From an uncultured Planctomycetia bacterium (lineage in GTDB: Bacteria > Planctomycetota > UBA8108), in assembly GCA_964392615.1 (NCBI GenBank), contig CAYMRB010000002.1, positions 4,243 to 68,242 on the forward strand: a DNA stretch of 64,000 nucleotides, written 5' to 3'. A program made the translations under genes and the position numbers. Below the pieces are notes generated by a model that had not been told where the DNA came from, made no database searches, and was given only the letters and a program-made list of their open reading frames with translations. Positions 6,092-61,042 of this stretch are shown here, piece after piece. Each line of letters opens with the position of its first letter. The stretch's first letter is position 1.

Positions 6092-6150
6092 GACGTCGAT
6101 CCTACCCCCTGGAGCGGTCGTGGACACCCTCGGCGAGCGAGAACCGGGCG

Positions 6151-26953: not shown

Positions 26954-26955
26954 CC

Positions 26956-29853: not shown

Positions 29854-29866
29854 AGGGGGGAGCACC

Positions 29867-45585: not shown

Positions 45586-45734
45586 CGGGGCACTCCCATC
45601 GTGTTCGCAGCGCGCGGATGTCGTCGTAAAGCGCTCGTAGGGGACATCTTAGGACAGTTTCGGTGATCCTGCGAGTGCCGTCCCAGAGTCTTCTCACCGT
45701 CATGAGCAAGATCTCCGGGCGACATTCCCGGAAA

Positions 45735-45765
45735 ATGTTATTGACAGCTGTGGCATGTTATAACA
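45735..45765. promoter_or_regulatory. Candidate GntR-type operator: direct ATGTTAT repeat 20 bp apart, with the second copy inside a perfect palindrome TGTTATAACA
   Basis: ATGTTAT occurs at 45735-45741 and 45755-45761. TGTTATAACA at 45756-45765 is self-complementary and fits the generic GntR-family GT-N(x)-AC operator pattern. It is the most AT-rich spot of the 224-bp divergent intergenic region, 45 nt upstream of the GntR/FCD gene start. Confidence 0.35.
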
Positions 45766-45809
45766 CGCTTGATGTCCACGAGGAAGTGAAAAGCGAACGC
45801 TGAGTTGCC

Positions 45810-46511
45810 ATGAAAGAAACCCTCGCTCGACGCGCCTACGAACAGCTCCGGCTCAAGCTCTCGCGGGGCGAATTCCCGCCGGGGACGCGCCTCGTCAACC
45901 GCACCCTCGCGAAGGAGCTCGGCGTCAGCTTCACGCCGGTGCGCGAGGCGATCAACCAGCTCGCGAGCGAGGGTCTGGTCGAGTACGTGCGCGGCGGTGG
46001 CGCGTTCGTGCGGCACATCGACCGGCGTGATGTCGCGCAGCTCTACGACCTGCGCTCGGTCATCGAGCCGTTCGCGGTCGCTGAAGCGGCGAAGCACATC
46101 TCCGAGCACGAGATCGAGGAGCTGCAGGAAATCTGCGATGACTGGCTCGAGCTGGCGGACGCTATTCGCACCAGCGACAGCCAGGTGGCGACGCAGGAGC
46201 AGGCGTTCCTGTGGGCCGCCGCCGAGGAGCGGTTTCACCACGTGCTGATCGACGCGGCGCGGAACCGGTGGCTCGCGAAGGTCGCGAAGGATCTGCTACT
46301 CGCGTCGCAGGCATTCGCGCCGCTGCGGTCCGCCAGTGAGCTCCTGACGCCGGGCGTGGCAGCCATCACTTGTGAGGATCACGCGAACCTCGTGGGCATT
46401 CTGCGTCGCCGAGACGCGGAGGCCGCGAGCGCATGGATGGTCGAGCACATCCGCGTCGGGCGGCAATACGTGCTCGACTTCCTGCGTCAATCGAACCAAC
46501 GGTCGGATTGA
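45810..46511 (+). CDS. GntR-family transcriptional regulator, FadR/FCD subfamily (NanR-like)
   Basis: wHTH segment LVNRTLAKELGVSFTPVREAINQLASEGLVEYVRGGGAFV, followed by an all-helical FCD-type effector domain (LYDLRSVIEPFAV...FHHVLIDAARN). Confidence 0.8.
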   Translation: MKETLARRAYEQLRLKLSRGEFPPGTRLVNRTLAKELGVSFTPVREAINQLASEGLVEYVRGGGAFVRHIDRRDVAQLYDLRSVIEPFAVAEAAKHISEHEIEELQEICDDWLELADAIRTSDSQVATQEQAFLWAAAEERFHHVLIDAARNRWLAKVAKDLLLASQAFAPLRSASELLTPGVAAITCEDHANLVGILRRRDAEAASAWMVEHIRVGRQYVLDFLRQSNQRSD

Positions 46512-46563
46512 ACGAACGATGTCGGCGCGCAGCGCCACTCGACGGATTGAAGGGTCTGAGAGG

Positions 46564-49500
46564 ATGAGCGACATGTCACGGAGAAGGCTCGTACTGCTTC
46601 TAACAGTGTGCGCTTCGTGCGCGTGGGCGACGACGGCTTCGGCTCTCGACGGCATGAAGGACTCGACGCAGTTTCCCCATGCGCTCGAGTTCGAGACCGA
46701 CGGTGAGATTCCGTCAGTCGAGGGCGCTGCCGATGGCTGGCAGGAAACCGTGTGGACCATCGACGGCGCCTCCGCGCCGAGTCTCAGCGTCGCCGGCGGC
46801 GTGATGACGGTCGATACCGTCGGCGTCGGCGGCGGGCACGACCTGCGTCTGCCCGTCGGCACATCGGCGTGGGCTGCGGAGGTCGGTCCGGATACGTCGT
46901 ACACGTTCGAGGCGCGATTGAAGGTCACCGCGCAGGGCGGTAGCGATCCGGGCTTCACGTTCTGGCTCGGCAACGGTGTCGCGGCCGAGACGGCGGTCGT
47001 GCAAGTGCGCACCGACGAGGTCATGTACGGGCGCACGACGCAGGTCCTTCATGAGGGCGACAACGCGGCGGAGTTCGTCACGGTTCGCATCGCCCACGAC
47101 GGCGAGACCGGGCTGCACACGATCTACCGCAACGGCGTAGCGATCGGTAGCGACCTCGGCCCGTCCGATCTCCAGCACGGGAACAACTGGGTCATCCTCG
47201 TCGACTTCGGCGGTGCCAACGAGGTGGCGGCCGTCGTCGATTACGTCCGCTGGGACGCGACGGGCGCGTACGAGCCGGACGACGGTACCCGCGACGCGAG
47301 CGAGCTCGCGCACAAGCTGCTCTTCGAGACCGACGGCGAGCTGCCGTCCGTCGAAGGCGCGGCCGACGGTTGGGGCGAGCGCGCCTGGCATACGCTGGCC
47401 GGCGTCTCGGCCTCGGGTCGACCGACGCTCGAGGTCTCGGGCGGCTGGCTGCGGTACGACTCGTTCACCGGTGACGGAACGAGCTCGTCCGGTGGCGAGT
47501 GGATTCAGAACGGACGGGGCTCCAGTGCGTGGGCGGGCGAGGTCGTCGCTGCCGGGGCGTCGTACACCCTCGAGGTCAGCATCCGCGTGACGAGCGCGGC
47601 TGGCGGCGGCACGATCCTTTGGGTCGGCAACGGATCGAACCTCTTGAACCTCAAGGTGAGCACCGACGCGCTCGCCGCCGGTGGCGGTTTCGGCGTGGAG
47701 GGGCTGGACAACTCGTCGGCTCCGGTGACGCTTCGCCTGGCATACGACGCGTCGGCAGGAACCTACGACATCTGGCACGACGAGGCGCTCGTCGGCGACG
47801 ACGTGACCCCGGCGGATGGCAACGACGACCGGATGATCCTGATCGACTGCTGCTCGAGCCTCGCGTCCGCTGGCGAGATCGACTACGTGCGCTGGACGGC
47901 CGCGGGAGCCCTCGATCCGTCGACGGCCTCCTCGACGTTCGCTCACGCGCTGGAGTTCGAAACCGACGGTGAGCTGCCGCAGTTCGAGGGCGCCGCGGAC
48001 GGATGGACGATGACCGGCGGCTGGAAGGTCGACGGTGCGCCGCCGAGCCTCGACGTGGTCGACGGCTTGCTGCAGTTCGATACGTTCACGGTCAACGGCG
48101 GCACGGGAGGAGCTCCCGATATCCACATGGAAGGCGGATCGGCGTGGGAGGCCGAGGTCGTGACGCCCGGAGCGTCGTTCACGCTCGAGGTCGGACTTCG
48201 GGTCCTCGATGCGTCGTCGAGCGGTGTCGCGCTGTTTCTCGGCAGCGGCAGTCGACGTCTGATCCTCAACGTCTCTCCGAGCGCCGTGCTCACCAACTCG
48301 GGCGAGGGCACGCTGCACGAGGGGGACAACGCGTCGGAGCTCGTGGCGATTCGCGTCGGCTTCGACAGCGCGACGGCGCGGCACTACGTGTGGCGCAACG
48401 GCATCCTGATTGGCGACGGTCTCGAGGCCCAGGCGCATGGTGACGCGCGCTGCATCCTGCTCGACACGTCGAGCGGCTTCGCGATCCGCGGCGAGCTCGA
48501 CTATGTGTGCTGGGAGGCGGGGCTGTACCCGCCGCCGGACTCCGGTGAGGACAATGAGGCCCCAGCCCCGCCGACCGGTCTCGTCGCCGAAGCGGGCGTC
48601 TCGACCGTGAGTCTCGACTGGGACTCGAACTCGGAAGACGACGTCGCCGGCTACAACGTCTATCGCTCCGAGACGAGCGGCGGTCCCCACGCTCTCCTCG
48701 CCGACGGCGTCGGGCAGAGCGCGTTCGTCGACGACACGGTGGCGAACGGAACGGAATACTTCTACGTCGTGACCGCCGTCGACGCTTCCGAGAACGAGTC
48801 GGACGCGTCGGACGAGGCGAGCGCGACGCCGGGCTTCGGCGGGGAAGCTGAGGCGGACGCGTTCGGTCACTGTCTGCACTTCGAGGTCGACGGCGAGCTG
48901 CCGAACGTCGAGGGAGTCGCGGACGGCGTGATGCTCGACGCGAGCTGGAACGCGACGCCGGATGTGCCGCCGACGATGACGGTCTCCGACGGACTGGTGC
49001 ACTTCGAGTCCGCCCTGCCCGGTCAGCACGCGATCACGATGACGGCCGGCTCCGCGTGGAACACCGAGGTCGGCGCCAGCGGCACGTACACGATCGAGGC
49101 GAGCCTGAGCGTGACGTCCGCTACGCAGGGTTTCGTGTTCTGGGTCGAGGGCGGTGGACGTCGATTGATCCTGCGCGTCGACACGAACGGCATCTTCACG
49201 TGGGACGGCGCGCAGCTCCACGAGGGCGACAACGCGTCGCGACTGGTGCTCGTCCGCGTCGGATACGAGCCGATCGGCGGCCTCTACTACGTGTGGCGCA
49301 ACGGCATCCTGATCGGCGACGGCGTCGCGCCCAGCGCGTCGACCGGCGACGCCCGCGTCTTCCTGATCGATTGCTGCTCGAGCACTCAGGCGACCGGCGC
49401 GATGGACTATCTCTGCTGGGACGCGACCGGCATCTATCCGCCGGCGTCGATCGTCGACGAGGTGCCGCCCGCGGCGCCGACGGGCCTCGCGGCCACGGGC

Positions 49501-51231
49501 GGGATCGGCGCGGTGATGCTCGACTGGGACTCCAACGCCGAGGACGACCTCGCGAGCTACAACGCATACCGCTCCGAGTCGCCCGGCGGCCCGTACGAGC
49601 TCATCGCCGAAGGCGTCGGCTCGAGCGACTATGTCGATACGACGGCCATCAACGGCACGACGTACCATTACGTCGTCACTGCCGTCGACGGTTCGGACAA
49701 CGAGTCCGACGCATCGGACGAGGCGAGCGCGGCGCCGAGCGCGCCCGACGAGCTCGGCGCCTCGACCTTCGCGCACTGCCTGCTGTTCGAGACCAACGGC
49801 GAGCTGCCGTCGGTCGAGGGCGCCGGCGATGGGTGGGCAGAGGACGCGTCGTGGAACCAGAACGATCCGGATCCGCCGACGCTCGCCGTCTTCGGCGGTC
49901 GGCTGATCTTCGACTCCGCGCTCGCGGGGCAGCACGCAATCACGATGTGGGAAGGCTCGGCATGGGAAGCGGAGATCGACGCGAGCGTGTCGTACACCAT
50001 GGAGCTCGACGTCAAGGTGAACGCGAGCGCCGGCGACGCTTCGGGCGTGACCGTGTGGCTCGCCAACGGCAGCACGCGATTGATCCTGCGCGTCGACACG
50101 AACGGTGTCTACACGTGGGCGGGCGATGAGCTCGACGCGAGCGACAACTCGGCCGAGTTCGCGACGATCCGCGTCGGCTACGATGCGCTCGGCGGTCTGT
50201 ACTACGTGTGGCGCAACGGCGTGCTGATCGGGGATGGCGTGCCGCCCAGCGGCAGTACTGCGCGCACGGCCGTGTTCCTGATCGACTGCTGCACGTCGGT
50301 GCAGGTCACCGGCGAGTTCGACTCGGTGTGCTGGACGGCCGACGGCATCTACGGGCCGGACCTCACGGCGCCGGATGCGCCGACCGGTCTCGGTGCCACT
50401 GGCGGTGAAGGCGAGGTTGCGCTCGACTGGGACGACAACGCCGACGCGGACCTCGCGGCCTACGATGTGCTGCGATCCGAGATGGCCGGTGGGCCGTACG
50501 ACGTGATCGCAAGCGATGTCGCGACGAGCTCGTACGTCGATACGGACGTCGTCAACGGCACGACGTACCACTACGTCGTCGTCGCCGTCGACACGAGCGG
50601 CAATCTCTCCGGCGCTTCGAACGAGGCGTCGGCGACTCCGGAGGACGTCACCGCGCCGAGCGCGCCTACGGGGCTCATGGCGGTCGGCGGTGACGCGGAG
50701 GTCATTCTCGACTGGGACGACAACGCCGAGGCTGACCTCGCGAGCTACAGCGTGCTGCGCTCGGAGACGACCGGCGGGCCGTACACCGAGGTCGCGAGCG
50801 GCCTCGCGACGAGCGATTGGGTCGATACCGCCGTCGTGAACGGTACGACGTACTACTACGTGGTGACGGCTACAGACACGGCGGACAACGAGTCCGACGA
50901 GTCGGTCGAAGCCGAAGCGACGCCGCTCGAGCCTGGCGGCCTCCAGCTGCCCGGCGACTGCAACCAGGACGGCGAGGTCGATGTGTCGGACGCTCTCTGC
51001 CTGTTCGGCTTCCTGTTCACCGGCGTGACTCCGGAGCTGCCCTGCGGCGATGGCTCGATTGACGATCCTGCGAACCTCACTCTGTTGAACTACAACGCTG
51101 GCACGGACCAGCAGCTCGACATCTCCGACGGCATCGCCGCGCTGGGCTACCTGTTCCTCGGCGGCCCGCCGCACGCCCTCGGTGAGGAGTGCATCCGCAT
51201 CGTCGACTGTGCGGACGTCTGTACCCCTTGA
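46564..51231 (+). CDS. Giant secreted repeat protein A: 5 copies of an uncharacterised ~200-aa module, 4 FN3 domains and a dockerin-like tail
   Basis: GAGAGG precedes the ATG at 46564. Signal peptide MSDMSRRRLVLLLTVCASCAWATTASA. The modules and FN3 domains are as listed in the repeat features. The antisense 1534-aa ORF is Arg-rich junk. Confidence 0.8.
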   Translation: MSDMSRRRLVLLLTVCASCAWATTASALDGMKDSTQFPHALEFETDGEIPSVEGAADGWQETVWTIDGASAPSLSVAGGVMTVDTVGVGGGHDLRLPVGTSAWAAEVGPDTSYTFEARLKVTAQGGSDPGFTFWLGNGVAAETAVVQVRTDEVMYGRTTQVLHEGDNAAEFVTVRIAHDGETGLHTIYRNGVAIGSDLGPSDLQHGNNWVILVDFGGANEVAAVVDYVRWDATGAYEPDDGTRDASELAHKLLFETDGELPSVEGAADGWGERAWHTLAGVSASGRPTLEVSGGWLRYDSFTGDGTSSSGGEWIQNGRGSSAWAGEVVAAGASYTLEVSIRVTSAAGGGTILWVGNGSNLLNLKVSTDALAAGGGFGVEGLDNSSAPVTLRLAYDASAGTYDIWHDEALVGDDVTPADGNDDRMILIDCCSSLASAGEIDYVRWTAAGALDPSTASSTFAHALEFETDGELPQFEGAADGWTMTGGWKVDGAPPSLDVVDGLLQFDTFTVNGGTGGAPDIHMEGGSAWEAEVVTPGASFTLEVGLRVLDASSSGVALFLGSGSRRLILNVSPSAVLTNSGEGTLHEGDNASELVAIRVGFDSATARHYVWRNGILIGDGLEAQAHGDARCILLDTSSGFAIRGELDYVCWEAGLYPPPDSGEDNEAPAPPTGLVAEAGVSTVSLDWDSNSEDDVAGYNVYRSETSGGPHALLADGVGQSAFVDDTVANGTEYFYVVTAVDASENESDASDEASATPGFGGEAEADAFGHCLHFEVDGELPNVEGVADGVMLDASWNATPDVPPTMTVSDGLVHFESALPGQHAITMTAGSAWNTEVGASGTYTIEASLSVTSATQGFVFWVEGGGRRLILRVDTNGIFTWDGAQLHEGDNASRLVLVRVGYEPIGGLYYVWRNGILIGDGVAPSASTGDARVFLIDCCSSTQATGAMDYLCWDATGIYPPASIVDEVPPAAPTGLAATGGIGAVMLDWDSNAEDDLASYNAYRSESPGGPYELIAEGVGSSDYVDTTAINGTTYHYVVTAVDGSDNESDASDEASAAPSAPDELGASTFAHCLLFETNGELPSVEGAGDGWAEDASWNQNDPDPPTLAVFGGRLIFDSALAGQHAITMWEGSAWEAEIDASVSYTMELDVKVNASAGDASGVTVWLANGSTRLILRVDTNGVYTWAGDELDASDNSAEFATIRVGYDALGGLYYVWRNGVLIGDGVPPSGSTARTAVFLIDCCTSVQVTGEFDSVCWTADGIYGPDLTAPDAPTGLGATGGEGEVALDWDDNADADLAAYDVLRSEMAGGPYDVIASDVATSSYVDTDVVNGTTYHYVVVAVDTSGNLSGASNEASATPEDVTAPSAPTGLMAVGGDAEVILDWDDNAEADLASYSVLRSETTGGPYTEVASGLATSDWVDTAVVNGTTYYYVVTATDTADNESDESVEAEATPLEPGGLQLPGDCNQDGEVDVSDALCLFGFLFTGVTPELPCGDGSIDDPANLTLLNYNAGTDQQLDISDGIAALGYLFLGGPPHALGEECIRIVDCADVCTP
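46672..47277 (+). repeat. Repeat module copy A1 (divergent, no CC pair)
   Basis: FPHALEFETDGEIPSVEGAADGW ... TSAWAAEV ... SYTFEA ... LHEGDNAAEFVTVRIAHD ... IYRNGVAIG ... VVDYVRWDATGAYEP. Confidence 0.8.
47305..47919 (+). repeat. Repeat module copy A2
   Basis: LAHKLLFETDGELPSVEGAADGW ... SSAWAGEV ... SYTLEV ... YDIWHDEALVGD ... ILIDCCSS ... EIDYVRWTAAGALDP. Confidence 0.8.
47938..48534 (+). repeat. Repeat module copy A3 (no CC pair)
   Basis: FAHALEFETDGELPQFEGAADGW ... GSAWEAEV ... LHEGDNASELVAIRVGFD ... HYVWRNGILIGDG ... ELDYVCWEAGLYPP. Confidence 0.8.
48862..49443 (+). repeat. Repeat module copy A4
   Basis: FGHCLHFEVDGELPNVEGVADG ... GSAWNTEV ... RRLILRVDTNG ... LHEGDNASRLVLVRVGYE ... YYVWRNGILIGDG ... 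FLIDCCSS ... MDYLCWDATGIYPP. Confidence 0.85.
49768..50358 (+). repeat. Repeat module copy A5
   Basis: FAHCLLFETNGELPSVEGAGDGW ... GSAWEAEI ... SYTMEL ... TRLILRVDTNG ... YYVWRNGVLIGDG ... FLIDCCTSVQ ... EFDSVCWTADGIYGP. Confidence 0.85.
50941..51228 (+). other. Dockerin-like double EF-hand module with a Cys-rich tail (C-terminus of giant protein A)
   Basis: PGDCNQDGEVDVSDALCLFGFLFTG...LPCGDGSIDDPANLTLLNYNAGTDQQLDISDGIAALGYLFLGGPPHALGEECIRIVDCADVCTP. Confidence 0.75.
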
Positions 51232-51316
51232 CGAACGAGGAGAACGAGCCGCGGCGCCTTCTTCCAGCGGGCGCCCGGCTCGCAATCCCTTCCGAATGAT
51301 CCCGAAAGGAAACGAC

Positions 51317-54300
51317 ATGTCGATCCCACGACGACTCCTGGCGGTATCGATCGGCTTCGTGCTGACGATGCCGTGCTATGCGGGCTTCGAGCGGGCCGAG
51401 TCGATCGACTTCGAGCACTTTCTCGAGTTCGAAGACGATGGCGTCTTGCCGTCGGCCGAGGGCCTCGCGGATGGTTGGCTCGAGGATGCGGTCTGGAACA
51501 TCGACGGCGACACGCCTCCGATGCTGAGCGTCGCTGACGGTTTGCTACGCTTCCAGTCCGTCCCGGCGGGCCAGCAGTCCATCACCATGTGGGGCGGCTC
51601 GGCGTGGGAGACGGAGGTGACTCCGGAGACGTCGTACACGATGGAGGTACGCGTCCGCGTGCTCGCGGCTGGCGGCGCGCAGCCGGGCGTGGTTCTGTGG
51701 CTCGCGAACGGTCAGAGACGATTGATTCTCCGCGTCGGCGTCGACGGGCTCTTCACGTGGGGGGGCGAGCAGCTCGACGCAGGCGACAACTCGACCGACT
51801 TCGTCACGATTCGCGTCGCCTATCATGCTGCCAGCGCCACGTATTGGGTTTGGCGTAACGACGTCCTGGTTGGCAATCGCGTGCCGGACAGCGGCGCAGC
51901 CGCCCAGGGGCGGACGGCGGTCTTTCTGATCGACTGCTGCACGTCGGTCGAGGTCGAAGGCGAGCTCGACTGGGTGCGCTGGGACGCGACCGAGGCCTTC
52001 GCGCCTCCCGCCGATCCGGACGACGAAACCGCACCTCCGGCGCCGACGGGCCTCGCCGCGGTCGGCGAGGACGGTCGCGTGCTGCTCGACTGGGACGACA
52101 ACACCGACGACGAGTTCGTGTGTTATGCCCTCTACCGTTCCGAAGACGCGGGCGGCCCGTTCGACCTCGTCGACGACGCTCTCTTCACGAGCGAGGCGAT
52201 CGACACGGATGTCGCGAATGGCACGACGTACCACTACGTCGTCCGCGCGGTCGACGCGAACGACAACGAGTCGGACGAGTCGAACGAGGCGAACGCGACG
52301 CCGTCGTCGGGCGTCGACGTGACGGCTCCGGAGATGCCGGTCGGCCTCATCGCGACGTCGCGCGGCGGCGCGATCTTCCTCGACTGGAACGACAACCTCG
52401 AGGGCGACCTCGCCGGCTACATCGTCAGTCGCTCGGAGGTCGCCGGCGGCCCGTACGCCGTCCTCGCGGACGACGTGACGATCAGCGAGTTCGAGGATGA
52501 CGCCGTCGCGGCGCAGACGCGTTACTACTACATCGTCGCGGCGTACGACGATGCGGACAATGCGTCCGACCCGACGCCGGAGGTCAGCTCCATCGTCACG
52601 ATCGGTATCGACGACGAGATCGAGAAGGAGGCGGAGGACTTCCCGCACAAGCTGCTCTTCGACGTCGACGGGCTTCTGCCGACCGAGGAGGGAGCCGATG
52701 ACGGCTGGACGATGGAGGCGTTCAACATCGGCGAGGGTGCGGCGCCGCCGAGCGTCGACGTGGTCGACGGACACCTCGCCTTCGAGACGGTTCTCGCCGG
52801 CCAATGGTCGCTGACGAACAACGGCGGCGCGTGGACGGCGGAGATCGACCCCACCGTGTCGTACACGTTCGAGGTCGCCATTCGGGTCACCGCTGCCAGC
52901 GGCGGAGTCCCGGGCGCGGTGATGTGGCTCGCCAACGGTCAGGAGCGTCTGGTCCTCGTCATCGGCACGGACAGCGTTTCGACGTGGTCCGGCACCCAAC
53001 TTCACGAAGGGGACAACTCCACGGAGTTCGTGTCGTTTCGCATCGCGTACGATGCCGCGAGCGGGCTGTACTTCGTCTGGCGGGACGGAGCCCTGATCGG
53101 CACGGAGATCCCCGCCGACGCCGCGGACGGTCGCACGGCCCTCTTCCTGCTCGACTGCTGTTCGACCGTGCAAGCGGCCGGCGAGGTCGACTACGTGTGC
53201 TGGGACGCCTCGGGTGCGTACTGGCCGCCGGTCGACGAAGGCGACGTGACAGCTCCCGACGCACCGACGGGTCTCGCCGCGGTGGCCGAGGAGTCGCGCG
53301 TCACGTTGAGCTGGGAGGAGAATTCGGAGCCGGATCTCGGCTCGTACCAGGTGGGACGCAGCGAGGACTCCGGCGGCCCGTACGAGATCATCGCCGAGAC
53401 GGGAGCGACGTCGTACGACGACGAGGCCGTCGTCAACGGGACGACGTACTTCTATGTCGTCTACGCCGTCGACGTGAACCGCAACGTTTCGGATCCGTCC
53501 GACGAGGTCGAGGCCACGCCGGAGGAAGGTGTCGACCTCACGGCGCCGGCGGCACCGACGGGCCTGCGCGCCGTGGTGACGCAGTTTGCCGAGGTCGCGC
53601 TGAGCTGGAATCTCGGCCCGGAGTTCGACCTCGACACGTACAACGTGTACCGATCCGAAACGGCCGGTGGGCCGTACGATATCATCGCCGAGGCGCTTTC
53701 GTTCTTCGAGGCCTCGTACACCGACGATGCCGTCGACCTGGGGACCACGTACTACTACGTCGTCACGGCGGTCGATGTGTCAGGCAACGAGTCCGAGTAC
53801 TCGGCAGAAGAGAGCGCCACACCGGAGGAGTTCGAGGGCTTCCCGGAGCGCGACGCGATGACCTTTGCGCACAAGCTCCTCTTCGAGGACGACGGCGTGC
53901 TACCGTCGGTCGAAGGAGCGGACGACGGCTGGGCCGAGGACGCCGCGTGGAACATCGGCGGTGACGTGGCCCCGTCGCTCGACGTGGTCGACGGGCTGCT
54001 GCAGTTCGAGTCGGTCCTGCCCGGACAGCAGTCGATCAAGCTGGAGGCCGGTTCGGCCTGGGCGGCCGAGGTCGATCCGGAGACGTCGTACACGTTCGAG
54101 GTGGGCCTGCGCATGATTGCGACGGATGCTCCGAATCCGGGCGCCTCCCTGTGGTTCGCCAACGGCGGGACACGGTTGATTCTGCGCGTTGATCTGAACG
54201 GTCTGTACACGTGGTCCGGTCAGCAGCTCAGTGACGAGGACAACACGGCGGACTTCGTGGCCCTCCGCGTCGCGTACGACGCCGCCCGCGGCGTGTACTT

Positions 54301-54772
54301 CGTCTGGCGCAACGAGGTCCTGGTCGGCGACGCGTTGCCCGAGGATGCCGCGGCAGCGGGTGGCCGGACGGCGGTCTTCCTGATCGACTGCTGCACGAGC
54401 GTCCAGGCGCAAGGCGAGTTCGACTACGTGTGCTGGGACGCGACCGGCGCCTACGCCCCCGGTGACGGCGGCGAGGAGCGGCCGCAGTTCCGTCGCGGCG
54501 ATGCCGACGCGAGCGGTCTCCTTCAGCTCAACGATGCGATCTTCGTGTTCAACTTCCTGTTCCTCGGCGGCCCGGACACGACGTGTCAGGAGGCCGCCGA
54601 CGCGGACAATAACAACCGGGTCGAGCTGACCGACGGTATCCGCGTGCTGAACTTCCTGTTCACCGGCGGACCGCCGCCTGTCGATCCCGGCCCGACCGAC
54701 TGCGGCACCGATTCCGACGCGCCGGGCTCGCCGGGTGATCTCGGCTGCGTCGAGTACGAAGCCTGTCCCTGA
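51317..54772 (+). CDS. Giant secreted repeat protein B: 3 copies of the module, 4 FN3 domains and a dockerin-like tail
   Basis: AAAGGAAA precedes the ATG at 51317. Signal peptide MSIPRRLLAVSIGFVLTMPCYAG. FN3 pairs lie between the modules (for example LDWDDNTDDEFVCYALYRSEDAGGP...GTTYHYVVRAVDANDNESD). Confidence 0.8.
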   Translation: MSIPRRLLAVSIGFVLTMPCYAGFERAESIDFEHFLEFEDDGVLPSAEGLADGWLEDAVWNIDGDTPPMLSVADGLLRFQSVPAGQQSITMWGGSAWETEVTPETSYTMEVRVRVLAAGGAQPGVVLWLANGQRRLILRVGVDGLFTWGGEQLDAGDNSTDFVTIRVAYHAASATYWVWRNDVLVGNRVPDSGAAAQGRTAVFLIDCCTSVEVEGELDWVRWDATEAFAPPADPDDETAPPAPTGLAAVGEDGRVLLDWDDNTDDEFVCYALYRSEDAGGPFDLVDDALFTSEAIDTDVANGTTYHYVVRAVDANDNESDESNEANATPSSGVDVTAPEMPVGLIATSRGGAIFLDWNDNLEGDLAGYIVSRSEVAGGPYAVLADDVTISEFEDDAVAAQTRYYYIVAAYDDADNASDPTPEVSSIVTIGIDDEIEKEAEDFPHKLLFDVDGLLPTEEGADDGWTMEAFNIGEGAAPPSVDVVDGHLAFETVLAGQWSLTNNGGAWTAEIDPTVSYTFEVAIRVTAASGGVPGAVMWLANGQERLVLVIGTDSVSTWSGTQLHEGDNSTEFVSFRIAYDAASGLYFVWRDGALIGTEIPADAADGRTALFLLDCCSTVQAAGEVDYVCWDASGAYWPPVDEGDVTAPDAPTGLAAVAEESRVTLSWEENSEPDLGSYQVGRSEDSGGPYEIIAETGATSYDDEAVVNGTTYFYVVYAVDVNRNVSDPSDEVEATPEEGVDLTAPAAPTGLRAVVTQFAEVALSWNLGPEFDLDTYNVYRSETAGGPYDIIAEALSFFEASYTDDAVDLGTTYYYVVTAVDVSGNESEYSAEESATPEEFEGFPERDAMTFAHKLLFEDDGVLPSVEGADDGWAEDAAWNIGGDVAPSLDVVDGLLQFESVLPGQQSIKLEAGSAWAAEVDPETSYTFEVGLRMIATDAPNPGASLWFANGGTRLILRVDLNGLYTWSGQQLSDEDNTADFVALRVAYDAARGVYFVWRNEVLVGDALPEDAAAAGGRTAVFLIDCCTSVQAQGEFDYVCWDATGAYAPGDGGEERPQFRRGDADASGLLQLNDAIFVFNFLFLGGPDTTCQEAADADNNNRVELTDGIRVLNFLFTGGPPPVDPGPTDCGTDSDAPGSPGDLGCVEYEACP
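51410..52009 (+). repeat. Repeat module copy B1
   Basis: FEHFLEFEDDGVLPSAEGLADGW ... GSAWETEV ... SYTMEV ... RRLILRVGVDG ... YWVWRNDVLVGN ... FLIDCCTSVE ... ELDWVRWDATEAFAPP. Confidence 0.85.
52640..53230 (+). repeat. Repeat module copy B2
   Basis: FPHKLLFDVDGLLPTEEGADDGW ... GGAWTAEI ... SYTFEV ... LHEGDNSTEFVSFRIAYD ... YFVWRDGALIG ... FLLDCCSTVQ ... EVDYVCWDASGAYWPP. Confidence 0.85.
53864..54460 (+). repeat. Repeat module copy B3
   Basis: FAHKLLFEDDGVLPSVEGADDGW ... GSAWAAEV ... SYTFEV ... TRLILRVDLNG ... YFVWRNEVLVGD ... FLIDCCTSVQ ... EFDYVCWDATGAYAP. Confidence 0.85.
54488..54769 (+). other. Dockerin-like double EF-hand module with a Cys-rich tail (C-terminus of giant protein B)
   Basis: RRGDADASGLLQLNDAIFVFNFLFLGGPDTTCQEAADADNNNRVELTDGIRVLNFLFTGGPPPVDPGPTDCGTDSDAPGSPGDLGCVEYEACP. 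Confidence 0.7.
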
Positions 54773-54799
54773 TTCGGCCGCCGTTGCAGAGCGATCGCG

Positions 54800-57700
54800 A
54801 TGGCCGTGATCGATCCTACGAGAATCGATAGCGACATGAACAGCCCCCACGAGAACCTCCTGATCTCGACCGGTCCGAGCCGGATCGTCGCGGCTGTCGT
54901 GACCGCTCTGCTTCTTCCATGCGTGCCGTCACTGGCCGACGACCCGGTTATCACCGAGTTCCTCGCCGCCAACTCGAGCTCGCTTCGCGACAGCGACGGG
55001 GACACGTCTGACTGGATCGAGATCCACAATCCCGGCGCCGAGAGCGTTGAGCTCGGCGGGTGGCGCCTGACGGATGACAGCCTGCTCCTGAAGTGGGCGT
55101 TCCCCGATCTCGAGCTGCCCGCCGACGCACGCCTCGTGGTCTTCGCCTCTGGGAAAGACCGGACGGATACGGGAGACGGTGGGGCGGTCGTCGACAGCGG
55201 TCGCGATTCGTCGACCTTCGCCCACCGCCTCGAGTTCGACGATGACGGCGTGCTGCCATCGGTCGAGGGGGGCGACGATGGTTGGCGTGAGGACGCTGCG
55301 TGGAACGTCGGCGGGCCTCCGCCGAGTCTCGACGTTGCCGATGGCCTCCTGGCATTCGAGTCGGTCCTCTCCGGCCAACAGGCGATCACGATGCCGGGCG
55401 GGTCGGCATGGGAGGCGGGAATCGACGCGGGGACGTCGTACACGTTCGAGGTGCGGCTGCGAGTCGTCTCGTCCGGCGGCGCGAACCCCGGCGCGATCAT
55501 CTGGTTGGCCAACGGCGAGGAGCGGCTGATTCTCCGCGTCGAGGAGAACGGCGTCAGCACGTGGTCGGGAATCGACCTCGATCCCGACGGACGCGACAAC
55601 GCCACCGAACTCGTCGCGTTTCGAGTCGCCTATGACGCGACCGACGGCCTGTACACCGTCTGGCGCGACGGCGTGCTCCTCGGCGATGATGTTCCGTCTG
55701 ACGGCGCAGCGAGCGGCGGCCGCACGGCGGTCTACCTGATCGATTGCTGCTCGAGCGTGCAAGTCGCGGGCGAGCTCGACTGGGTGCGCTGGGACGCGAC
55801 GGGGGCCTATCCCCCTCCCGGTGCCGGCGGCGGAGTCGACCTGCCGGAGCTGCACACGAACTTCTCTCTGTCGTCGAGCGGCGAGTACCTCGCGCTCGTC
55901 TCGCCCGACGGGACGCGCGTGTCGACGGAGTTCGCACCGTCATTTCCACTGCAGCGACGTGACGTGTCCTACGGTCCGGATGGTTACTACCTGACGCCCA
56001 CACCGGGCGCGCCGAACGGTACGGCCGTCGCCGGTTTCACGGCGGACCCCGAGTTCAGCCGGGCGCGCGGCTTCTACGACGCGTCGTTCGACCTCGCGTT
56101 GTCGACCGCGACGCCGGGAGCCTCGATTCGCTACACGGTCGACGGCAGCAAGCCGAGCGCCGACGACGGGCTGCTCTACTCGGGCCCGATCGAGGTGACG
56201 ACGACGACCTGCGTCCGCGCGATCGCATTCGCCGAGGGGTTCGCATCGTCGAAAGCGATCACCCACAGCTACCTGTTTCTCGAGGACGTGCTGCGGCAGA
56301 CCGGCGCCGGGTTTCCGGTCGATCCGGATTGGGACTACGACATGGACCCGAACGTCGTCGACGACCCGCGATACGCCGACGGCATGATCGGCGCGTTGCG
56401 CTCGCTGCCGACGCTGTCCCTGGCGCTACCGGTCGAGGACATGTTCGGGCCGAGCGGCATCCACGCGAACCCGACGCAGGGAGGCTTCGCGTGGGAGCGT
56501 GAGACTTCTGCGGAGTGGATTCTACCGGACGGCACGACCGCGTTTCAGGTCGACTGCGGCGTGCGGATCCAGGGCGCGGGCAGTCGTTTCCGGTCTCTCG
56601 GCAAGAAGTCATTCCGTCTGGCGTTCCGCAGCCGATACGGTCCCGGCAAGCTCGAGTATCCGATCTTCGGCTTCGACGCTGCCGATGAGTTCGACACGCT
56701 GGTCGTGCGCGGCAACTACTTCGACACGTGGAGCGTGCATACGTCAGGCGACGGCGAGACGATCGGCTGGGAGGCCGCGCTGCTGTTCCGCGATCCGTTC
56801 GGTTACATCAGCCAAGCGGACAGCGGCCACACCACGCTGCACGGCACCTGGGTGCATCTGTACATCGACGGGCTGTACTGGGGGGTGTACAACGTCACGG
56901 AGCGTCCCGACGAGGAGTTCGCCGCGTCCTATTTCGGCGGTGATCCGGAAGACTACGACGTCCTCAAGCAGCGCCCGCGCGGCGCCGGAAACGGCAGCCC
57001 CCCCGATCTCGTCAGCGGCGATCGGGCCGGGTGGAACGAGCTTCGCGATCTGGTCCTGGACGACATCGCGTCGTCGGAGGTCTATGCGGAGGTCGGTGAG
57101 CGCCTCGATCTCGGCGCGTTTGCAGACTACCTGATCCTGAACCTGTGGGGCGGCAATCAGGACTGGCCGCACAACAATTGGTACGCGATCCGCGACGCCG
57201 AAGACGGCACGCCTTTTCGTTTCATCGCGTGGGACACGGAGAACTTCATCTTCCGGCTCAATGAGTCCGGCAAGCTCAATACGAGCGTCGACCACTCTCC
57301 GGGCATCCTGTACAGCCGGCTGCGGACGAACGAGGAATTCCGCGTGCTGTTCGGCGACCACGCGCACCGCTTGCTGTTTCACGGTGGAGCGTTCACGCCC
57401 GAGAGCGCGAGCGAGCGCTTTTCCGCCATCGCCGACGAGATACGCGACGCGATGGACGGCGAAGCCGCGCGCTGGGGCGATACGCGCATCGAACCCCCGC
57501 GCAACCGACTCGACACATGGGAGGTCGTGATCGCCGACAAGCTGGGACGGTACTTCCCGCGGCGAACGGACATCGCGCTGGGGCAGTTCCGATCGATCGG
57601 TCTCTATCCGGACGTCGACGCGCCCGTATACAATCGGCACGGTGGGGCGATCGACCCAGGGTTCGCGTTGCGGGTCTCGGCGCCTGCGGGGACCGTTTGG

Positions 57701-59239
57701 CTCACGCTGGATGGAAGCGATCCACGTCTGCCCGGCGGCTCGGTGTCCCCGAGTGCCACTGAGGTCGGTACGGAAGGCGCGGCGCTCCTGAACGCCGGTG
57801 CGCCGGCGCGGGCTCTCGTACCCACGGACGGCGCGCTCGGAGTCGAATGGACCCACCTAGCGTTCGACGACGCGACATGGCTCTCGGGAGCTACCGGCGT
57901 CGGCTTCGAGCGCTCGAGCGGCTTCGAGGACCTCATCGGACTCGACGTCGAAACGCAGGCGTGGAACGTCAACGAGACGGTGTACGTCCGCGTGCCTTTC
58001 GAGCTCGATGGCGATCCGGCGGCCGTCGGCCTCCTGACCCTGCGGATGCAGTACGACGACGGATTCGTCGCCTACCTGAACGGCACCGAGATCGCGTCGC
58101 GCAACGCGCCCGACGACCTGACGTGGAATTCGGGAGCGACGCGTGGTCACACGGACAGCGCCGCAACCGTGTTCGAGAGCATCGACGTCAGCGAGCACGT
58201 GGACGCGCTGCGACGAGGAACGAACGTCTTGGCGATCCACGGTCTCAATTCCGGCGTCAACTCGAGCGATCTCCTGTTCGTGCCGGAGATCAACGCGGTT
58301 CGCTTGGGCGGTGTCGGTCTGGTCTTGGACCGTACGACGATCGCGCGATCCCGTGCGCGTGCCGGCGACGAGTGGAGCGCGCTGCACGAAGCGACCTTCG
58401 TCGTCGATTCCTCGGTGCTCCGAATCACGGAGATCATGTACCACCCGCGGCCTGCGCCGGTGCTCCCTGACGATCCGCCCGGCGGGAGTCCGTTCTCCGA
58501 CGACGATTTCGAGTTCATCGAGCTTCGCAACGTCGGGGACGTGCCGATCAATCTCGTCGGCATGCGGTTCGTCTCCGGGATCGAGTTCACGTTCCCGGCG
58601 GGCAGTCAGGACCCGGCCGATGACTTGCAGCCGGGCGAGTTCGTGCTCGTCGTCGAGAATCTGGAGGCGTTCCGTTCGCGTTACGACGTGACGGACCTCT
58701 ACATCGCCGGGCAGTATCGCGGCAACCTCGACAACGACGGCGAGTCCATCGTCCTCGTCGACGCCCTCGGACGGTTGACCCTCGACTTCGTCTACAGCGA
58801 CAACTGGCATCGCATCACGGATGGTCTCGGGCGCTCGCTCGAGATCATCGATGCCACCGCACCGCCCGAGACGTGGGGGCTGCGCACGTCCTGGAGCGCG
58901 AGCGAGGTCGACGACGGCACTCCGGGTACCGGGCCGGATCTCATCGACGGTGGCCTGCAACGTCCGGGCGACATCAACCAGGACGGAAACGTCGACATCT
59001 CAGACGGGGTCGGCCTCCTGGGCCACCTGTTCGGCGGCGCGTTGCCGGTCCTGCCGTGTGGCGACGGTACGGTACGAGACGCGGCGAACCGCGCGCTTCT
59101 CGATGGCTCCGGCGACGGTTCCGTCGATCTGTCGGATGCCGTCTATCTCCTCAACTACTTGTTCCAGGGCGGTCCGCCTCACGCGGGCGGCGTCGAATGC
59201 GTTTCGGTTTCCGGTTGCCCGCGCGGTTGCGATTCGTAA
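54800..59239 (+). CDS. CotH-family protein with N- and C-terminal lamin-tail domains (LTD), one inserted repeat module, a chitobiase/hexosaminidase-C-like domain and a dockerin-like tail
   Basis: LTD 1: VITEFLAANSSSLRDSDGDTSDWIEIHNPGAESVELGGWRLTDD ... LVVFASGKDR [module] ELHTNFSLSSSGEYLALVSPDG. CotH core: ETSAEWILPDGTTAFQVDCGVRIQGAGSRFRSLGKKSFRLAFRSRYG ... LVVRGNYFD ... VHLYIDGLYWGVYNVTERPDEEF. LTD 2: LRITEIMYHP...FEFIELRNVGDVPINLVGMRF...GEFVLVV...NLDNDGESIVLVDALG. An alternative start is MNSPHE at 54836. Confidence 0.8.
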   Translation: MAVIDPTRIDSDMNSPHENLLISTGPSRIVAAVVTALLLPCVPSLADDPVITEFLAANSSSLRDSDGDTSDWIEIHNPGAESVELGGWRLTDDSLLLKWAFPDLELPADARLVVFASGKDRTDTGDGGAVVDSGRDSSTFAHRLEFDDDGVLPSVEGGDDGWREDAAWNVGGPPPSLDVADGLLAFESVLSGQQAITMPGGSAWEAGIDAGTSYTFEVRLRVVSSGGANPGAIIWLANGEERLILRVEENGVSTWSGIDLDPDGRDNATELVAFRVAYDATDGLYTVWRDGVLLGDDVPSDGAASGGRTAVYLIDCCSSVQVAGELDWVRWDATGAYPPPGAGGGVDLPELHTNFSLSSSGEYLALVSPDGTRVSTEFAPSFPLQRRDVSYGPDGYYLTPTPGAPNGTAVAGFTADPEFSRARGFYDASFDLALSTATPGASIRYTVDGSKPSADDGLLYSGPIEVTTTTCVRAIAFAEGFASSKAITHSYLFLEDVLRQTGAGFPVDPDWDYDMDPNVVDDPRYADGMIGALRSLPTLSLALPVEDMFGPSGIHANPTQGGFAWERETSAEWILPDGTTAFQVDCGVRIQGAGSRFRSLGKKSFRLAFRSRYGPGKLEYPIFGFDAADEFDTLVVRGNYFDTWSVHTSGDGETIGWEAALLFRDPFGYISQADSGHTTLHGTWVHLYIDGLYWGVYNVTERPDEEFAASYFGGDPEDYDVLKQRPRGAGNGSPPDLVSGDRAGWNELRDLVLDDIASSEVYAEVGERLDLGAFADYLILNLWGGNQDWPHNNWYAIRDAEDGTPFRFIAWDTENFIFRLNESGKLNTSVDHSPGILYSRLRTNEEFRVLFGDHAHRLLFHGGAFTPESASERFSAIADEIRDAMDGEAARWGDTRIEPPRNRLDTWEVVIADKLGRYFPRRTDIALGQFRSIGLYPDVDAPVYNRHGGAIDPGFALRVSAPAGTVWLTLDGSDPRLPGGSVSPSATEVGTEGAALLNAGAPARALVPTDGALGVEWTHLAFDDATWLSGATGVGFERSSGFEDLIGLDVETQAWNVNETVYVRVPFELDGDPAAVGLLTLRMQYDDGFVAYLNGTEIASRNAPDDLTWNSGATRGHTDSAATVFESIDVSEHVDALRRGTNVLAIHGLNSGVNSSDLLFVPEINAVRLGGVGLVLDRTTIARSRARAGDEWSALHEATFVVDSSVLRITEIMYHPRPAPVLPDDPPGGSPFSDDDFEFIELRNVGDVPINLVGMRFVSGIEFTFPAGSQDPADDLQPGEFVLVVENLEAFRSRYDVTDLYIAGQYRGNLDNDGESIVLVDALGRLTLDFVYSDNWHRITDGLGRSLEIIDATAPPETWGLRTSWSASEVDDGTPGTGPDLIDGGLQRPGDINQDGNVDISDGVGLLGHLFGGALPVLPCGDGTVRDAANRALLDGSGDGSVDLSDAVYLLNYLFQGGPPHAGGVECVSVSGCPRGCDS
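55217..55816 (+). repeat. Repeat module copy C1 (inserted within the N-terminal LTD of the CotH-family protein)
   Basis: FAHRLEFDDDGVLPSVEGGDDGW ... GSAWEAGI ... SYTFEV ... ERLILRVEENG ... YTVWRDGVLLGDD ... YLIDCCSSVQ ... ELDWVRWDATGAYPP. Confidence 0.85.
58955..59236 (+). other. Dockerin-like double EF-hand module with a Cys-rich tail (C-terminus of the CotH-family protein)
   Basis: PGDINQDGNVDISDGVGLLGHLFGGALPVLPCGDGTVRDAANRALLDGSGDGSVDLSDAVYLLNYLFQGGPPHAGGVECVSVSGCPRGCDS. Confidence 0.75.
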
Positions 59240-59324
59240 ACTCGTAGCTCGCCTCCTGCCGCGAGATGCCGGGCCCGAGCCATCGGGTCGAACGTTGCGC
59301 TGCCCTGACCTGCCGAGAATCGAC

Positions 59325-60263
59325 ATGCCGAAGCTGACTGGACTGATCGCAGCCACGTACACACCGATGCACGCCGACGGCCGCTTGGCGCTGGACAAGG
59401 TCGACGAGCTGGCCGAGCGGCTTATCGCAGACGGCGTGTCAGGCGCGTTCCTGTGCGGAACGACCGGCGAGTTCGCGTCGTTGACCGCGGTGGAGCGCGC
59501 GGCGGTCTGCGAGCGCTGGGTCGCGGCTACCGCTGGGCGCATCGCAGTGATCGCGCACGTCGGCGGCACCTGTGCGCAGCAATCCAAGGCGCTGGCGTCT
59601 CGAGCGCAGATGGCCGGTGTGGACGCGATCGCGTGCATCGCGCCGTACTTCTTCAAGCCGAGGACCGTCGAGGATCTCGTCGCGTACTGTGCCGAGGTCG
59701 CCGCCGCGGCACCGGAAGTGCCGTTCTACTATTACCACCTGCCGGCCTTGACCGACGTCGACCTGCCGATGGTCGAGTTCCTCCGCATCGGTGCGGATCG
59801 TATCCCGATGCTCGCAGGCGTGAAGTTCAGCCATAACAACCTGATGGATCTCGCGCAGTGTGTCGCGCTCGACGACGGGCGCTATGATTTGCTGTTCGGC
59901 TGCGATGAGACTCTGCTGAGCGGTCTGGCCTTCGGCTGTGAGGGCGCGGTCGGCACGACGTACGGCTTCGCGGCACCGCTCTACCATCGGATCATCGACG
60001 CGTTCGCGGCGGGCGACGTCGCGACGGCGCAGCGGCTCCAACTTCGCTCGATCGAGTGGGTGAGCATCTTCGTCCGCTTCGGCGGCCATCGCGCGATGAA
60101 GGCTGTCATGAAGCTGAGCGGCATCGATTGCGGACCGGTCCGGCCGCCGCTCGCTCCCCTGTCCGACGAGGAGTACGAAGAGCTCACGAACGAGCTGACG
60201 GCCGCCGGATTCGACGAGGCTCGGGCGAGCGCGCCCGCATGCCCGCGCAGCGAGGCGGTCTGA
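59325..60263 (+). CDS. nanA: N-acetylneuraminate lyase (DHDPS/NAL family)
   Basis: GTTGEFASLT, the Tyr block YYYHLPALTDV (NAL-type IPAL/LPAL rather than the DHDPS-type NVPxRT) and the Schiff-base Lys in LAGVKFSHNNL. I trimmed the start from 58821 to MPKLTGLIAATYTP (59325). The call is supported by the sialic-acid locus context. Confidence 0.75.
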   Translation: MPKLTGLIAATYTPMHADGRLALDKVDELAERLIADGVSGAFLCGTTGEFASLTAVERAAVCERWVAATAGRIAVIAHVGGTCAQQSKALASRAQMAGVDAIACIAPYFFKPRTVEDLVAYCAEVAAAAPEVPFYYYHLPALTDVDLPMVEFLRIGADRIPMLAGVKFSHNNLMDLAQCVALDDGRYDLLFGCDETLLSGLAFGCEGAVGTTYGFAAPLYHRIIDAFAAGDVATAQRLQLRSIEWVSIFVRFGGHRAMKAVMKLSGIDCGPVRPPLAPLSDEEYEELTNELTAAGFDEARASAPACPRSEAV

Positions 60264-60268
60264 CGGGG

Positions 60269-60296
60269 CCGCAAATCAGCACTATCCGTGCTGCGG
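60269..60296. terminator. Candidate bidirectional stem-loop between convergent genes
   Basis: In CCGCAaatcAGCACtatccGTGCTGCGG, AGCAC/GTGCT forms a perfect 5-bp stem, extended by GCGG/CCGC across a bulge. There is no U-tract. Confidence 0.3.
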
Positions 60297-60304
60297 ACGG
60301 CGGT

Positions 60305-61042
60305 TCAATCGCCCACCAGCGGCGCGGTCTGCTCCTGGCTCGTGATGCCCGGCGGCAGCTCGAGGATGCGGATGTTGCGGAAGTGGATCTCGGCGCCTTC
60401 GGACTCGAGGCACAGATAGCCCTTCTTGACCGACGCGTTGCGTACTCCGTTGACGAACTTGCCGTTGACGGACAGCTTGACGACTCCGTCGACGCAGACG
60501 ACGTCGTACACGTTCCACTCGCCCCGGCCCTTGCAGCGGTTCTCGATCGACTTGCTGCGGCTGCCGCGCGGGTTGTCCGGGGTCGCCTTCAGGCCGCCGG
60601 CGCCGAAGAGCTCGCCGTGCACGTAGGCGATCGGCGGCAGCGAGCCGTCCTTGCGCTTGTGGCGGTTGACCCAGTCGAGCTCGAGCATCTGGACCTCGAG
60701 TCCCTTCGGTAGCCGGCGACCTTTCGGTACCGTGCCGGTGCTCCACGCGAAGACGCCGGAGTTGCCGCCCGGCTCCATGTGGCGCCACTCGATGTGCAGG
60801 ATGAAGTTCTCGTACTGCTTCTCGGATCGCATCACGCCGATCGGGCGCCCCTTGCAGACGAGCAGGCCGTCGCGAACGGACCACGTGTCTTCCGCCGTGT
60901 TGACGTTGACCCAGCCCGTCAGGTCCTTGCCGTTGAACAGGCTGCGGAACTGCGGGACATCGGGCTCGGCAGGCGCGCGATCGCCGCCGAGCAGGAAGAT
61001 CACGCCGCCGATCAGCACTGCCGCGATCGCGAGGATTCTCAT
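60305..61042 (-). CDS. DUF1080 (3-keto-disaccharide hydrolase-like) family secreted protein
   Basis: Signal anchor [19 protein letters not shown], then the family blocks [25 protein letters not shown] and [12 protein letters not shown] trimmed the start from 61144. Confidence 0.75.

Follow-up and report, generated by a model that had tools for sequence, protein, structure and literature searches.

Giant planctomycetal proteins carry repeated lectin-like modules distantly related to the domain with which Vibrio cholerae sialidase binds sialic acid

Non-catalytic proteins that carry repeated binding modules with fibronectin type III (FN3) or immunoglobulin (Ig) spacers are a known design, and multivalent constructs of VcCBM40, the carbohydrate-binding module (CBM) at the N-terminus of the Vibrio cholerae sialidase NanH, were reportedly engineered by Connaris et al. 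in 2009. The title of PDB entry 2W68 states that the receptor affinity of VcCBM40 is enhanced through multivalency. The isolated domain binds 3'-sialyllactose (3'SL) with a dissociation constant (KD) of 1.8 µM (PMC4546082). According to a passage of PMC12355970 that cites Moustafa 2004, sialic acid is contacted by Arg74 and Arg118, which hold its carboxylate, and by Gln188, Gly196, Ser197 and Ser198. In CBM40 of the clostridial/streptococcal type, an Arg binds the carboxylate (PMC4546082). Siglec-like sialic acid-binding domains are found in streptococcal AsaA and SRRPs (PMC7846122), and the combination of LTD, CotH and dockerin domains has been reported for cellulosome components (PMC6083626). 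Here we describe a 64,000-nucleotide (nt) stretch of contig CAYMRB010000002.1 from an uncultured Planctomycetia bacterium (the window), in which three consecutive giant genes encode nine copies of a ~200-amino-acid (aa) module that appears to be a distant relative of VcCBM40 and lies among genes for sialoglycan breakdown.

A profile built from the nine units and searched against the six-frame translation of the window returns nine full-length matches, each spanning profile positions 1-197. These are exactly the nine copies listed by the initial annotation, which overlooked a tenth copy and a shared C-terminal tail. Pairwise identity among the nine ranges from 38 to 66% over about 200 aa, a degree of repetition far beyond chance, and their alignment contains 29 invariant columns at a mean column identity of 60%. 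Orthologues of the copies are present in other genomes. The tenth, divergent copy occupies residues about 582-775 of an esterase that joins SASA and GDSL domains (E=1.2e-12 with the profile from the nine copies only), such that the module hosts in the window are two non-catalytic proteins, one CotH protein and one esterase, and no sialidase. A Cys-Cys pair is present in seven of the nine copies, as first noted, and is replaced by FGG in copy 1 and TSS in copy 3. The copies had also been described as separated by FN3 domains. The spacers are indeed FN3 by sequence (PDB 3mpc, E=1.6e-11; Pfam fn3, E=1.6e-5, 25.5 bits against a 25-bit cut-off), but copies 1-3 are directly in tandem, and only the remaining copies are spaced by one or two FN3 domains.

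Single modules give zero matches to Pfam or NCBIfam even at E≤1, Pfam Sial-lect-inser (PF09264) included, and the nine-copy profile alone, run against PDB sequences, finds nothing at E≤10. A family profile of 48 sequences, searched against the 177,635 distinct sequences of the PDB, matches only V. cholerae sialidase chains (1KIT, 1W0O and 2W68, the last being the N-terminal lectin domain in isolation; E=9.5e-8 to 4e-7). This match covers the whole lectin domain, with profile positions 4-188 aligned to residues 28-215, and a weaker match falls on the second lectin wing of the same sialidase. Comparison of the module family with the V. cholerae N-terminal lectin domain using hhalign yields a probability of 95.8% (E=8e-9). 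An AlphaFold2 model of copy 8 is an all-beta structure with a predicted local distance difference test (pLDDT) score of 92.1 and a predicted template modelling (pTM) score of 0.90. The top five matches of this model in a Foldseek search of the PDB are all VcCBM40 or V. cholerae sialidase (2w68, 6eku, 1kit; TM 0.64-0.71 over ~193 columns), led by 2w68 at TM 0.67-0.71. The next matches, at TM about 0.5, are NTNHA, botulinum Hc, Emp46p, PL7, a GH16 glucanase and the lectin domain of a trans-sialidase. For a second model, that of the distant PEP-CTERM family member P0048 (pLDDT 78.9), 2w68 is again the best match (TM about 0.7).

On profile and model evidence, the module is predicted to be a beta-sandwich lectin domain and a distant homologue of the N-terminal sialic acid-binding domain of V. 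cholerae sialidase, that is to say of Vibrio-type CBM40. Both AlphaFold2 models have the Vibrio-type fold. The sequence relationship is reached with the family profile only, the nine-copy profile and PF09264 being silent, and attachment to a GH33 sialidase is seen for no window copy, BNR sialidase-like domains being carried by the relatives P0093, P0096 and P0105. We do not file the module as CBM40 because its contact residues are not conserved, the sequence link exists only at the level of the family profile and binding is inferred; it is treated as a new divergent family within the Vibrio-type CBM40 lectin lineage. The initial annotation had proposed a LamG/concanavalin-type, lectin-like beta-sandwich. 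The all-beta model (pLDDT 92) and its jelly-roll lectin neighbours agree with the general fold; membership of Laminin_G_3 (PF13385) was rejected, with no match at E≤1 and with one relative, P0120, holding Laminin_G_3 and the module as separate domains. DUF1080 (3keto-disac_hyd), found in two neighbouring genes, was also set aside as a relative, being absent from the sequence matches of the module. The view that the module was undescribed and could not be placed holds in so far as no Pfam or NCBIfam model covers it, while its profile and fold do match the V. cholerae sialidase lectin domain. This kinship to a sialic acid-specific domain lowers the novelty of the module by the standard that the annotation had set for itself, and strengthens the case for sialoglycan as the ligand.

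The V. cholerae contacts were transferred to module positions by HMMER, hhalign and hmmalign, which were concordant (copy 8 numbering). Arg118 corresponds to R104, the Arg of the conserved NG..RLILRV block, which is present in seven of nine copies, and Gln188 corresponds to R168, which is R or D in the copies. Asn195-Gly196-Ser197-Ser198 falls on D175-C176-C177-S/T178, in the loop that joins the final two modelled strands. Arg74 maps at or beside G54/Q55, where Arg is not conserved and the local alignment is uncertain. The putative binding site would then consist of R104, another Arg where V. cholerae has Gln188, and the loop connecting the final two strands. The Cys-Cys pair that this loop has in most copies may form a vicinal disulfide serving as a platform for the sugar. 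Vicinal disulfides are described as platforms touching the undecorated face of sugar rings in a passage of PMC12102755 that cites Richardson 2017.

Comparison of 40 module copies drawn from four genomes (the window and its relatives L003, L009 and L010) shows that the positions matching the V. cholerae contacts switch together between module subtypes. Two subtypes covary at four sites: Q55, R104, R168 and C-C-S/T characterise subtype A, and G55, T104, N168 and F-G-G subtype B. A third pattern combines T-P, R, N and C-C-G. Scaffold residues T77, E79, N127, R135 and D175 are invariant in all 40 copies, and R149 differs in one. Coordinated change limited to positions homologous to the sugar site fits one functional pocket that has been diversified. 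We attach no statistic to this covariation because the copies share common descent. The presence of at least two binding-site subtypes within the arrays hints at more than one ligand. Subtype B predominates among the N-terminal tandem copies of gene 1, and in L003 and L010 they alternate with the third pattern (T-P/R/N/CCG). Gene 1 holds five modules in the window and six in its relatives.

The three giant genes form a compact cassette with the genes on either side, with gaps of 52, 85, 27 and 85 nt from regulator to gene 1, gene 2, gene 3 and nanA, in agreement with the spacing first noted. The flanking genes had been called a NanR-like regulator and nanA. Inspection of both supports their families, GntR/FCD and DHDPS, while each falls below the cut-off of the specific model (49 bits against 260 for NanR; 151 bits against 281, E=4.3e-44, for N-acetylneuraminate lyase, the best NCBIfam match). 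The regulator occupies the same position in L003, L005/L009 and L010, and the DHDPS gene does so in L009 and L010. The full order of regulator, six-module ~1570-aa protein, ~1160-aa protein, ~1450-aa CotH protein and DHDPS gene is kept in two other genomes. In L009, a 7.87-Mb contig of a Planctomycetota metagenome-assembled genome (MAG), an epimerase and a BNR+sulfatase+SASA fusion come after the cassette, and in L010, an 84-kb contig, a co-directional sialidase does; the flanks upstream of the cassette vary among genomes. The tie between the module and glycan-degradation loci, expected from the initial annotation, is found elsewhere, with the nanA link kept in two other genomes. Every relative in the genome collections is a Planctomycetia or Planctomycetota MAG, and the related-locus search with the nine-copy alignment returned orthologues only.

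Beyond these loci, 1.84 billion cluster representatives were searched exhaustively with HMMER, which recovers 482 module relatives at E≤1e-3, of which 163 reach E≤1e-10. A word-indexed protein search returned 1 and then 7 relatives and missed most query members, hence the exhaustive representative search. Among the best 150 relatives besides orthologues of the three genes, about half are small proteins of ~250 aa, or of ~450 aa with two modules, that combine a signal peptide with a PEP-CTERM anchor; the remainder are multidomain proteins. In the latter, fusion partners of the module are SASA+GDSL esterases (P0019, P0044, P0063, P0078, P0145; the first four are unrelated metagenomic proteins that repeat the layout of the window esterase), the BNR sialidase-like domains mentioned above, a DUF5703/GH95-like enzyme (P0030) and, in some relatives, dockerins; fusions to GDSL esterases account for 10 of 45 multidomain members. 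The locus of P0048 contains a sialidase and three sulfatases, P0001 and P0163 adjoin GDSL esterases, and P0137 and P0163 adjoin LacI-like regulators. In P0120, Laminin_G_3 (839-986), a Pfam Sial-lect-inser domain and the module (1749-1884) are three separate regions. P0120 (2013 aa) and P0060 (2536 aa), both metagenomic, are giant proteins rich in cadherin and Big_9 domains that combine Laminin_G_3, a closer Vibrio-type lectin region and the module; the Vibrio-type region of P0060 is recognised only when the lectin sequence of V. cholerae is compared with it directly by phmmer. Both are useful bridging sequences for setting the boundaries of the family.

The N-termini of all three giant proteins are signal peptide-like as read from the translations, in keeping with the earlier description of secreted proteins. 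A public gene call for gene 1 (JGI contig L001, which matches the window) starts at an internal Met at 46654 and loses the signal peptide (46564-46653), such that automated localisation predictions would be wrong. A ~90-aa dockerin-like C-terminal tail is common to the three giant proteins and the SASA+GDSL esterase. A duplicated D-x-N-x-D-G-x-V-D-x-S-D ... L-F-x-G-G pattern is seen in all four tails, and their scores against dockerin models are sub-threshold (PF00404 at best 19 bits against a 22.9-bit cut-off, E=0.0017; PDB dockerins at E=0.1-0.7). A GH10 protein at 4721-7018 (-) carries the same tail at 4784-4996 (E=1.4e-18 with a profile built from the other four). The tail is likely a general display or secretion module of the organism. 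No cohesin partner for the tail turned up, and no search aimed at cohesin-like partners was made. Pfam matches in gene 3 comprise CotH (7.5e-23; 82 bits against a 23.8-bit cut-off, which places it in the CotH kinase family, PF08757), LTD (7e-21), CHB_HEX_C_1 (8.4e-18) and Dockerin_1 (0.0017). Some 300 residues of gene 3 between CotH and the second LTD (roughly 57490-58410) have no family match.

Taken together, we favor, at a probability of roughly 55%, a reading in which the three proteins are secreted and probably surface-retained multivalent lectins whose CBM40-like modules bind sialylated glycans by avidity and thereby feed the enzymes of the locus. The proteins probably hold sialylated glycans for a sialic acid-degrading locus because the module is distantly related to the cholera sialidase lectin domain. 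Under this reading, the arrays would bind sialylated, and possibly also O-acetylated or sulfated, glycans by avidity at or near the cell surface, where bound substrate would be held for the sialidases, esterases and sulfatases of the locus. Freed sialic acid would be taken up by NanM/SSF and cleaved by the NanA encoded directly downstream, and the upstream GntR/FCD regulator probably controls expression of the cassette.

Several observations weigh against binding of sialylated glycans. Identity between the module and VcCBM40 is only about 10-12%, and Pfam Sial-lect-inser matches no module copy at E≤1. Of the six V. cholerae contacts, only Arg118 is conserved, in seven of nine copies, and Arg74 is lost at a place where the alignment is uncertain. 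The dockerin-like tail is generic and not specific to the module system, because it also occurs on the unrelated GH10 protein. Finally, the family as a whole may bind other glycans, since most members are small PEP-CTERM proteins that have GDSL esterases or LacI-like regulators as neighbours and lack evident sialic-acid genes around them. The replacement of five of the six contact residues, the existence of two binding-site subtypes, the prevalence of GDSL/SGNH esterases over sialidases as fusion and neighbour partners in the wider family and the abundance of sulfatases in the locus, which equals that of sialidases, would all suit a lectin or CBM of the same fold with a different ligand, such as sulfated glycans, O-acetyl groups, other nonulosonic or uronic acids or a neutral sugar, and with mucin-like or algal glycans as the target. 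We judge this alternative unlikely but worth taking seriously. The only PDB entry type with significant sequence similarity to the module, and also its closest structural counterpart, is a sialic acid-binding domain, the equivalent of the carboxylate-binding Arg118 is retained in seven of nine copies, the linkage specifically to nanA is tight and conserved, and fusions to BNR and SASA domains exist.

It is improbable that the module is a structural or protein-binding beta-sandwich of envelope or matrix proteins (adhesins, S-layer-like proteins, or substrates or partners of CotH kinases) with no glycan role and an incidental position in the nan locus. Such a role would accommodate the small PEP-CTERM surface proteins that make up half of the family representatives, the obscure extracellular role of the CotH kinase-like and LTD domains of gene 3 and the fact that the sialic-acid ligand of the module is only inferred. 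It sits poorly with the order of regulator, three genes and nanA in three genomes whose upstream flanks differ, with repeated fusions to carbohydrate esterases, sialidase-like domains and a GH95-like enzyme, and with coordinate variation at just those positions homologous to the sugar-binding site. A catalytic jelly-roll, such as a PL7-like lyase or GH16-like hydrolase, is very improbable. PL7 alginate lyases and a GH16 glucanase are among the Foldseek matches at TM about 0.5, and invariant E79, N127 and R135 with near-invariant R149 could build an active site. These enzyme matches are much weaker than VcCBM40 (TM 0.5 versus 0.7), no sequence-profile match to any enzyme family exists in Pfam, NCBIfam or the PDB, nine tandem catalytic copies would be unprecedented, and on real enzymes the module acts as an appended accessory domain; a catalytic role of the PL7/GH16 kind was therefore rejected.

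The sialoglycan-binding reading can be extended to a more specific proposal, which we offer tentatively and consider doubtful in its entirety. Here, the module would be a new CBM family derived from the Vibrio-type sialidase lectin with a site rebuilt on two arginines and a vicinal disulfide. Hetero-multivalent arrays (at least two subtypes, 9-10 copies per cassette) would be displayed together with the module-bearing sialate esterase through the shared tail, forming a sialoglycan-capture scaffold co-regulated with nanA.

Coordinates of the cassette, its modules and neighboring genes are collected in Table 1. The window, with a G+C content of 64-69%, is on sequence grounds a sialo- and sulfo-glycan utilisation locus. 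The abundance of sialic-acid and sulfo-glycan genes reported at the outset is borne out by sialidases, SASA esterases, sulfatases, NanM and SSF, a GlcNAc 2-epimerase and NanA. Scans for promoters and terminators across 45500-60500 gave no more sites than shuffled sequence. The open reading frame (ORF) at 26095-29853 (+) encodes a NanM-type sialate mutarotase (Kelch) at aa 472-748 and, directly after it, an SSF sodium:solute symporter at aa 783-1185. It could be a mutarotase-transporter fusion, and it overlaps the preceding gene so that its start is ambiguous. Unusual enzyme fusions include the sulfatase+BNR sialidase-like and sulfatase+SASA proteins of the window and a 1523-aa BNR+sulfatase+SASA protein in a related MAG (L009 16543-21114, -). 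Between the sulfatase and the GntR regulator, a URO-D/MtaA-like (methyltransferase-fold) gene occupies 44467-45585 (-) and is also present in JGI contig L001. Two ~1000-aa proteins, at 3-3152 (-) and 17944-20913 (-), have HZS_alpha (E=1e-28 and 6e-24), the 'hydrazine synthase alpha subunit middle domain', as their sole annotated domain.

Table 1. Features of the module cassette and surrounding locus in window coordinates.
Feature	Position	Strand	Details
Sulfatase + BNR	23969-26953	+	
NanM + SSF symporter ORF	26095-29853	+	NANM 1.1e-33, SSF 5.2e-44
Sulfatase + SASA	29804-32824	+	
SASA+GDSL esterase	35840-38326	-	828 aa: signal peptide, SASA, GDSL, module copy 10, dockerin-like tail
Dockerin-like tail, SASA+GDSL esterase	35843-36052	-	
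Module copy 10	36068-36649	-	In SASA+GDSL esterase
BNR sialidase	38346-41690	-	BNR_2 6.1e-55, BNR_assoc_N 4.3e-19
N-acylglucosamine (GlcNAc) 2-epimerase	41542-42762	-	
Sulfatase	42759-44933	-	
GntR-type regulator with FCD ligand domain	45810-46511	+	Pfam GntR 1.2e-18, FCD 4.7e-21; 52 nt upstream of gene 1
Three giant genes	46564-59239	+	
Gene 1	46564-51231	+	1555 aa: signal peptide, modules 1-3, FN3, module 4, FN3, module 5, two FN3, dockerin-like tail
Module copy 1	46672-47277	+	Gene 1; subtype B (GGH / T104 / N168 / D-F-G-G)
Module copy 2	47305-47919	+	Gene 1; Cys-Cys pair yes, Arg118 equivalent no
Module copy 3	47938-48534	+	Gene 1; Arg118 equivalent yes, TSS replaces CCS
FN3 spacer, gene 1	48535-48861	+	Match to PDB 3mpc, Fn3-like protein
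Module copy 4	48862-49443	+	Gene 1; subtype A
Module copy 5	49768-50358	+	Gene 1; subtype A
Two FN3 domains, gene 1	50359-50955	+	Pfam fn3
Dockerin-like tail, gene 1	50944-51213	+	Pfam Dockerin_1 weak
Gene 2	51317-54772	+	1151 aa (1158 aa with start 51296): signal peptide, module 6, two FN3, module 7, two FN3, module 8, dockerin-like tail
Module copy 6	51410-52009	+	Gene 2; subtype A
Module copy 7	52640-53230	+	Gene 2; subtype A
Module copy 8	53864-54460	+	Gene 2; subtype A; copy used for AlphaFold2 model
R104 of copy 8	54173-54175	+	
C176-C177 of copy 8	54389-54394	+	
Dockerin-like tail, gene 2	54488-54769	+	
Gene 3	54800-59239	+	1479 aa: signal peptide, LTD, module 9, CHB_HEX_C/Fn3_assoc, CotH, second LTD, dockerin-like tail
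LTD, gene 3	54941-55207	+	Pfam
Module copy 9	55217-55816	+	Gene 3 (CotH protein); subtype A
CHB_HEX_C/Fn3_assoc, gene 3	56066-56272	+	Pfam
CotH, gene 3	56561-57487	+	Pfam
Second LTD, gene 3	58415-58660	+	Pfam
Dockerin-like tail, gene 3	58958-59221	+	Pfam Dockerin_1 sub-threshold
DHDPS-family gene, probably N-acetylneuraminate lyase (nanA)	59325-60263	+	Pfam DHDPS 3.5e-55; 85 nt after gene 3

An architecture of non-catalytic arrays with 5-6, 3 and 1 copies, FN3 spacers and a dockerin-like tail beside nanA is not described in the literature returned by our limited searches. If the modules bind sialoglycans, they would be candidates for a new CBM family, akin to CBM40 but with its recognition loop altered to Cys-Cys, and the arrays would provide a natural counterpart of the engineered multivalent CBM40 binders of high avidity for sialic acid. 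To our knowledge, Planctomycetes lack SusC/D systems of the Bacteroidetes type, and the arrays might illustrate how organisms without SusC/D keep glycans that are sialylated or sulfated close to the cell. The family, with its 482 representatives, is mostly metagenomic, unnamed and unannotated, so that assigning it a function would give an annotation to many PEP-CTERM and esterase-linked proteins.

Comparison with known systems places the module closest to the V. cholerae NanH lectin domain (VcCBM40; 2W68, 1W0O, 1KIT; PF09264). Both have ~190-200 residues, a superposable fold (TM 0.67-0.71) and full-length homology at the level of the family profile, with the Arg118 equivalent conserved and the ligand loop placed between the last two strands, and both are associated with sialidases and sialic-acid catabolism. 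In contrast to VcCBM40, the module replaces Arg74, Gln188 and Gly196-Ser197-Ser198 by G/Q, Arg and Cys-Cys-Ser/Thr, and the window modules are not joined to a GH33 catalytic domain and occur as 5+3+1 copies in non-sialidase proteins. The two kinds of domain are found side by side as separate domains in P0120. CBM40 of the clostridial and streptococcal sialidases (C. perfringens NanJ, S. pneumoniae NanA; PF02973) is also a beta-sandwich sialic acid-binding module attached to sialidases, but it belongs to another CBM40 subfamily and is absent from the sequence matches and top structural matches of the module.

At the level of whole proteins, gene 3 resembles the CotH-dockerin proteins of cellulosomes and anaerobic fungi in joining LTD, CotH and a dockerin-like tail; its tail differs in being sub-threshold for dockerin and its substrate context is sialoglycan, not the plant cell wall. 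The streptococcal AsaA and SRRP adhesins are likewise surface proteins with repeated sialic acid-binding units (predicted for the window proteins) and no enzyme activity, but they use a Siglec-like Ig fold rather than a jelly-roll lectin, belong to host-associated Gram-positives and have two repeats only. The engineered multivalent VcCBM40 constructs are artificial, whereas the window arrays are natural, FN3-spaced, of at least two subtypes and equipped with a dockerin-like tail, their binding being predicted. By analogy, the constructs and the window arrays share the placement of several sialidase-type lectin modules in one polypeptide, which would imply a gain in avidity.

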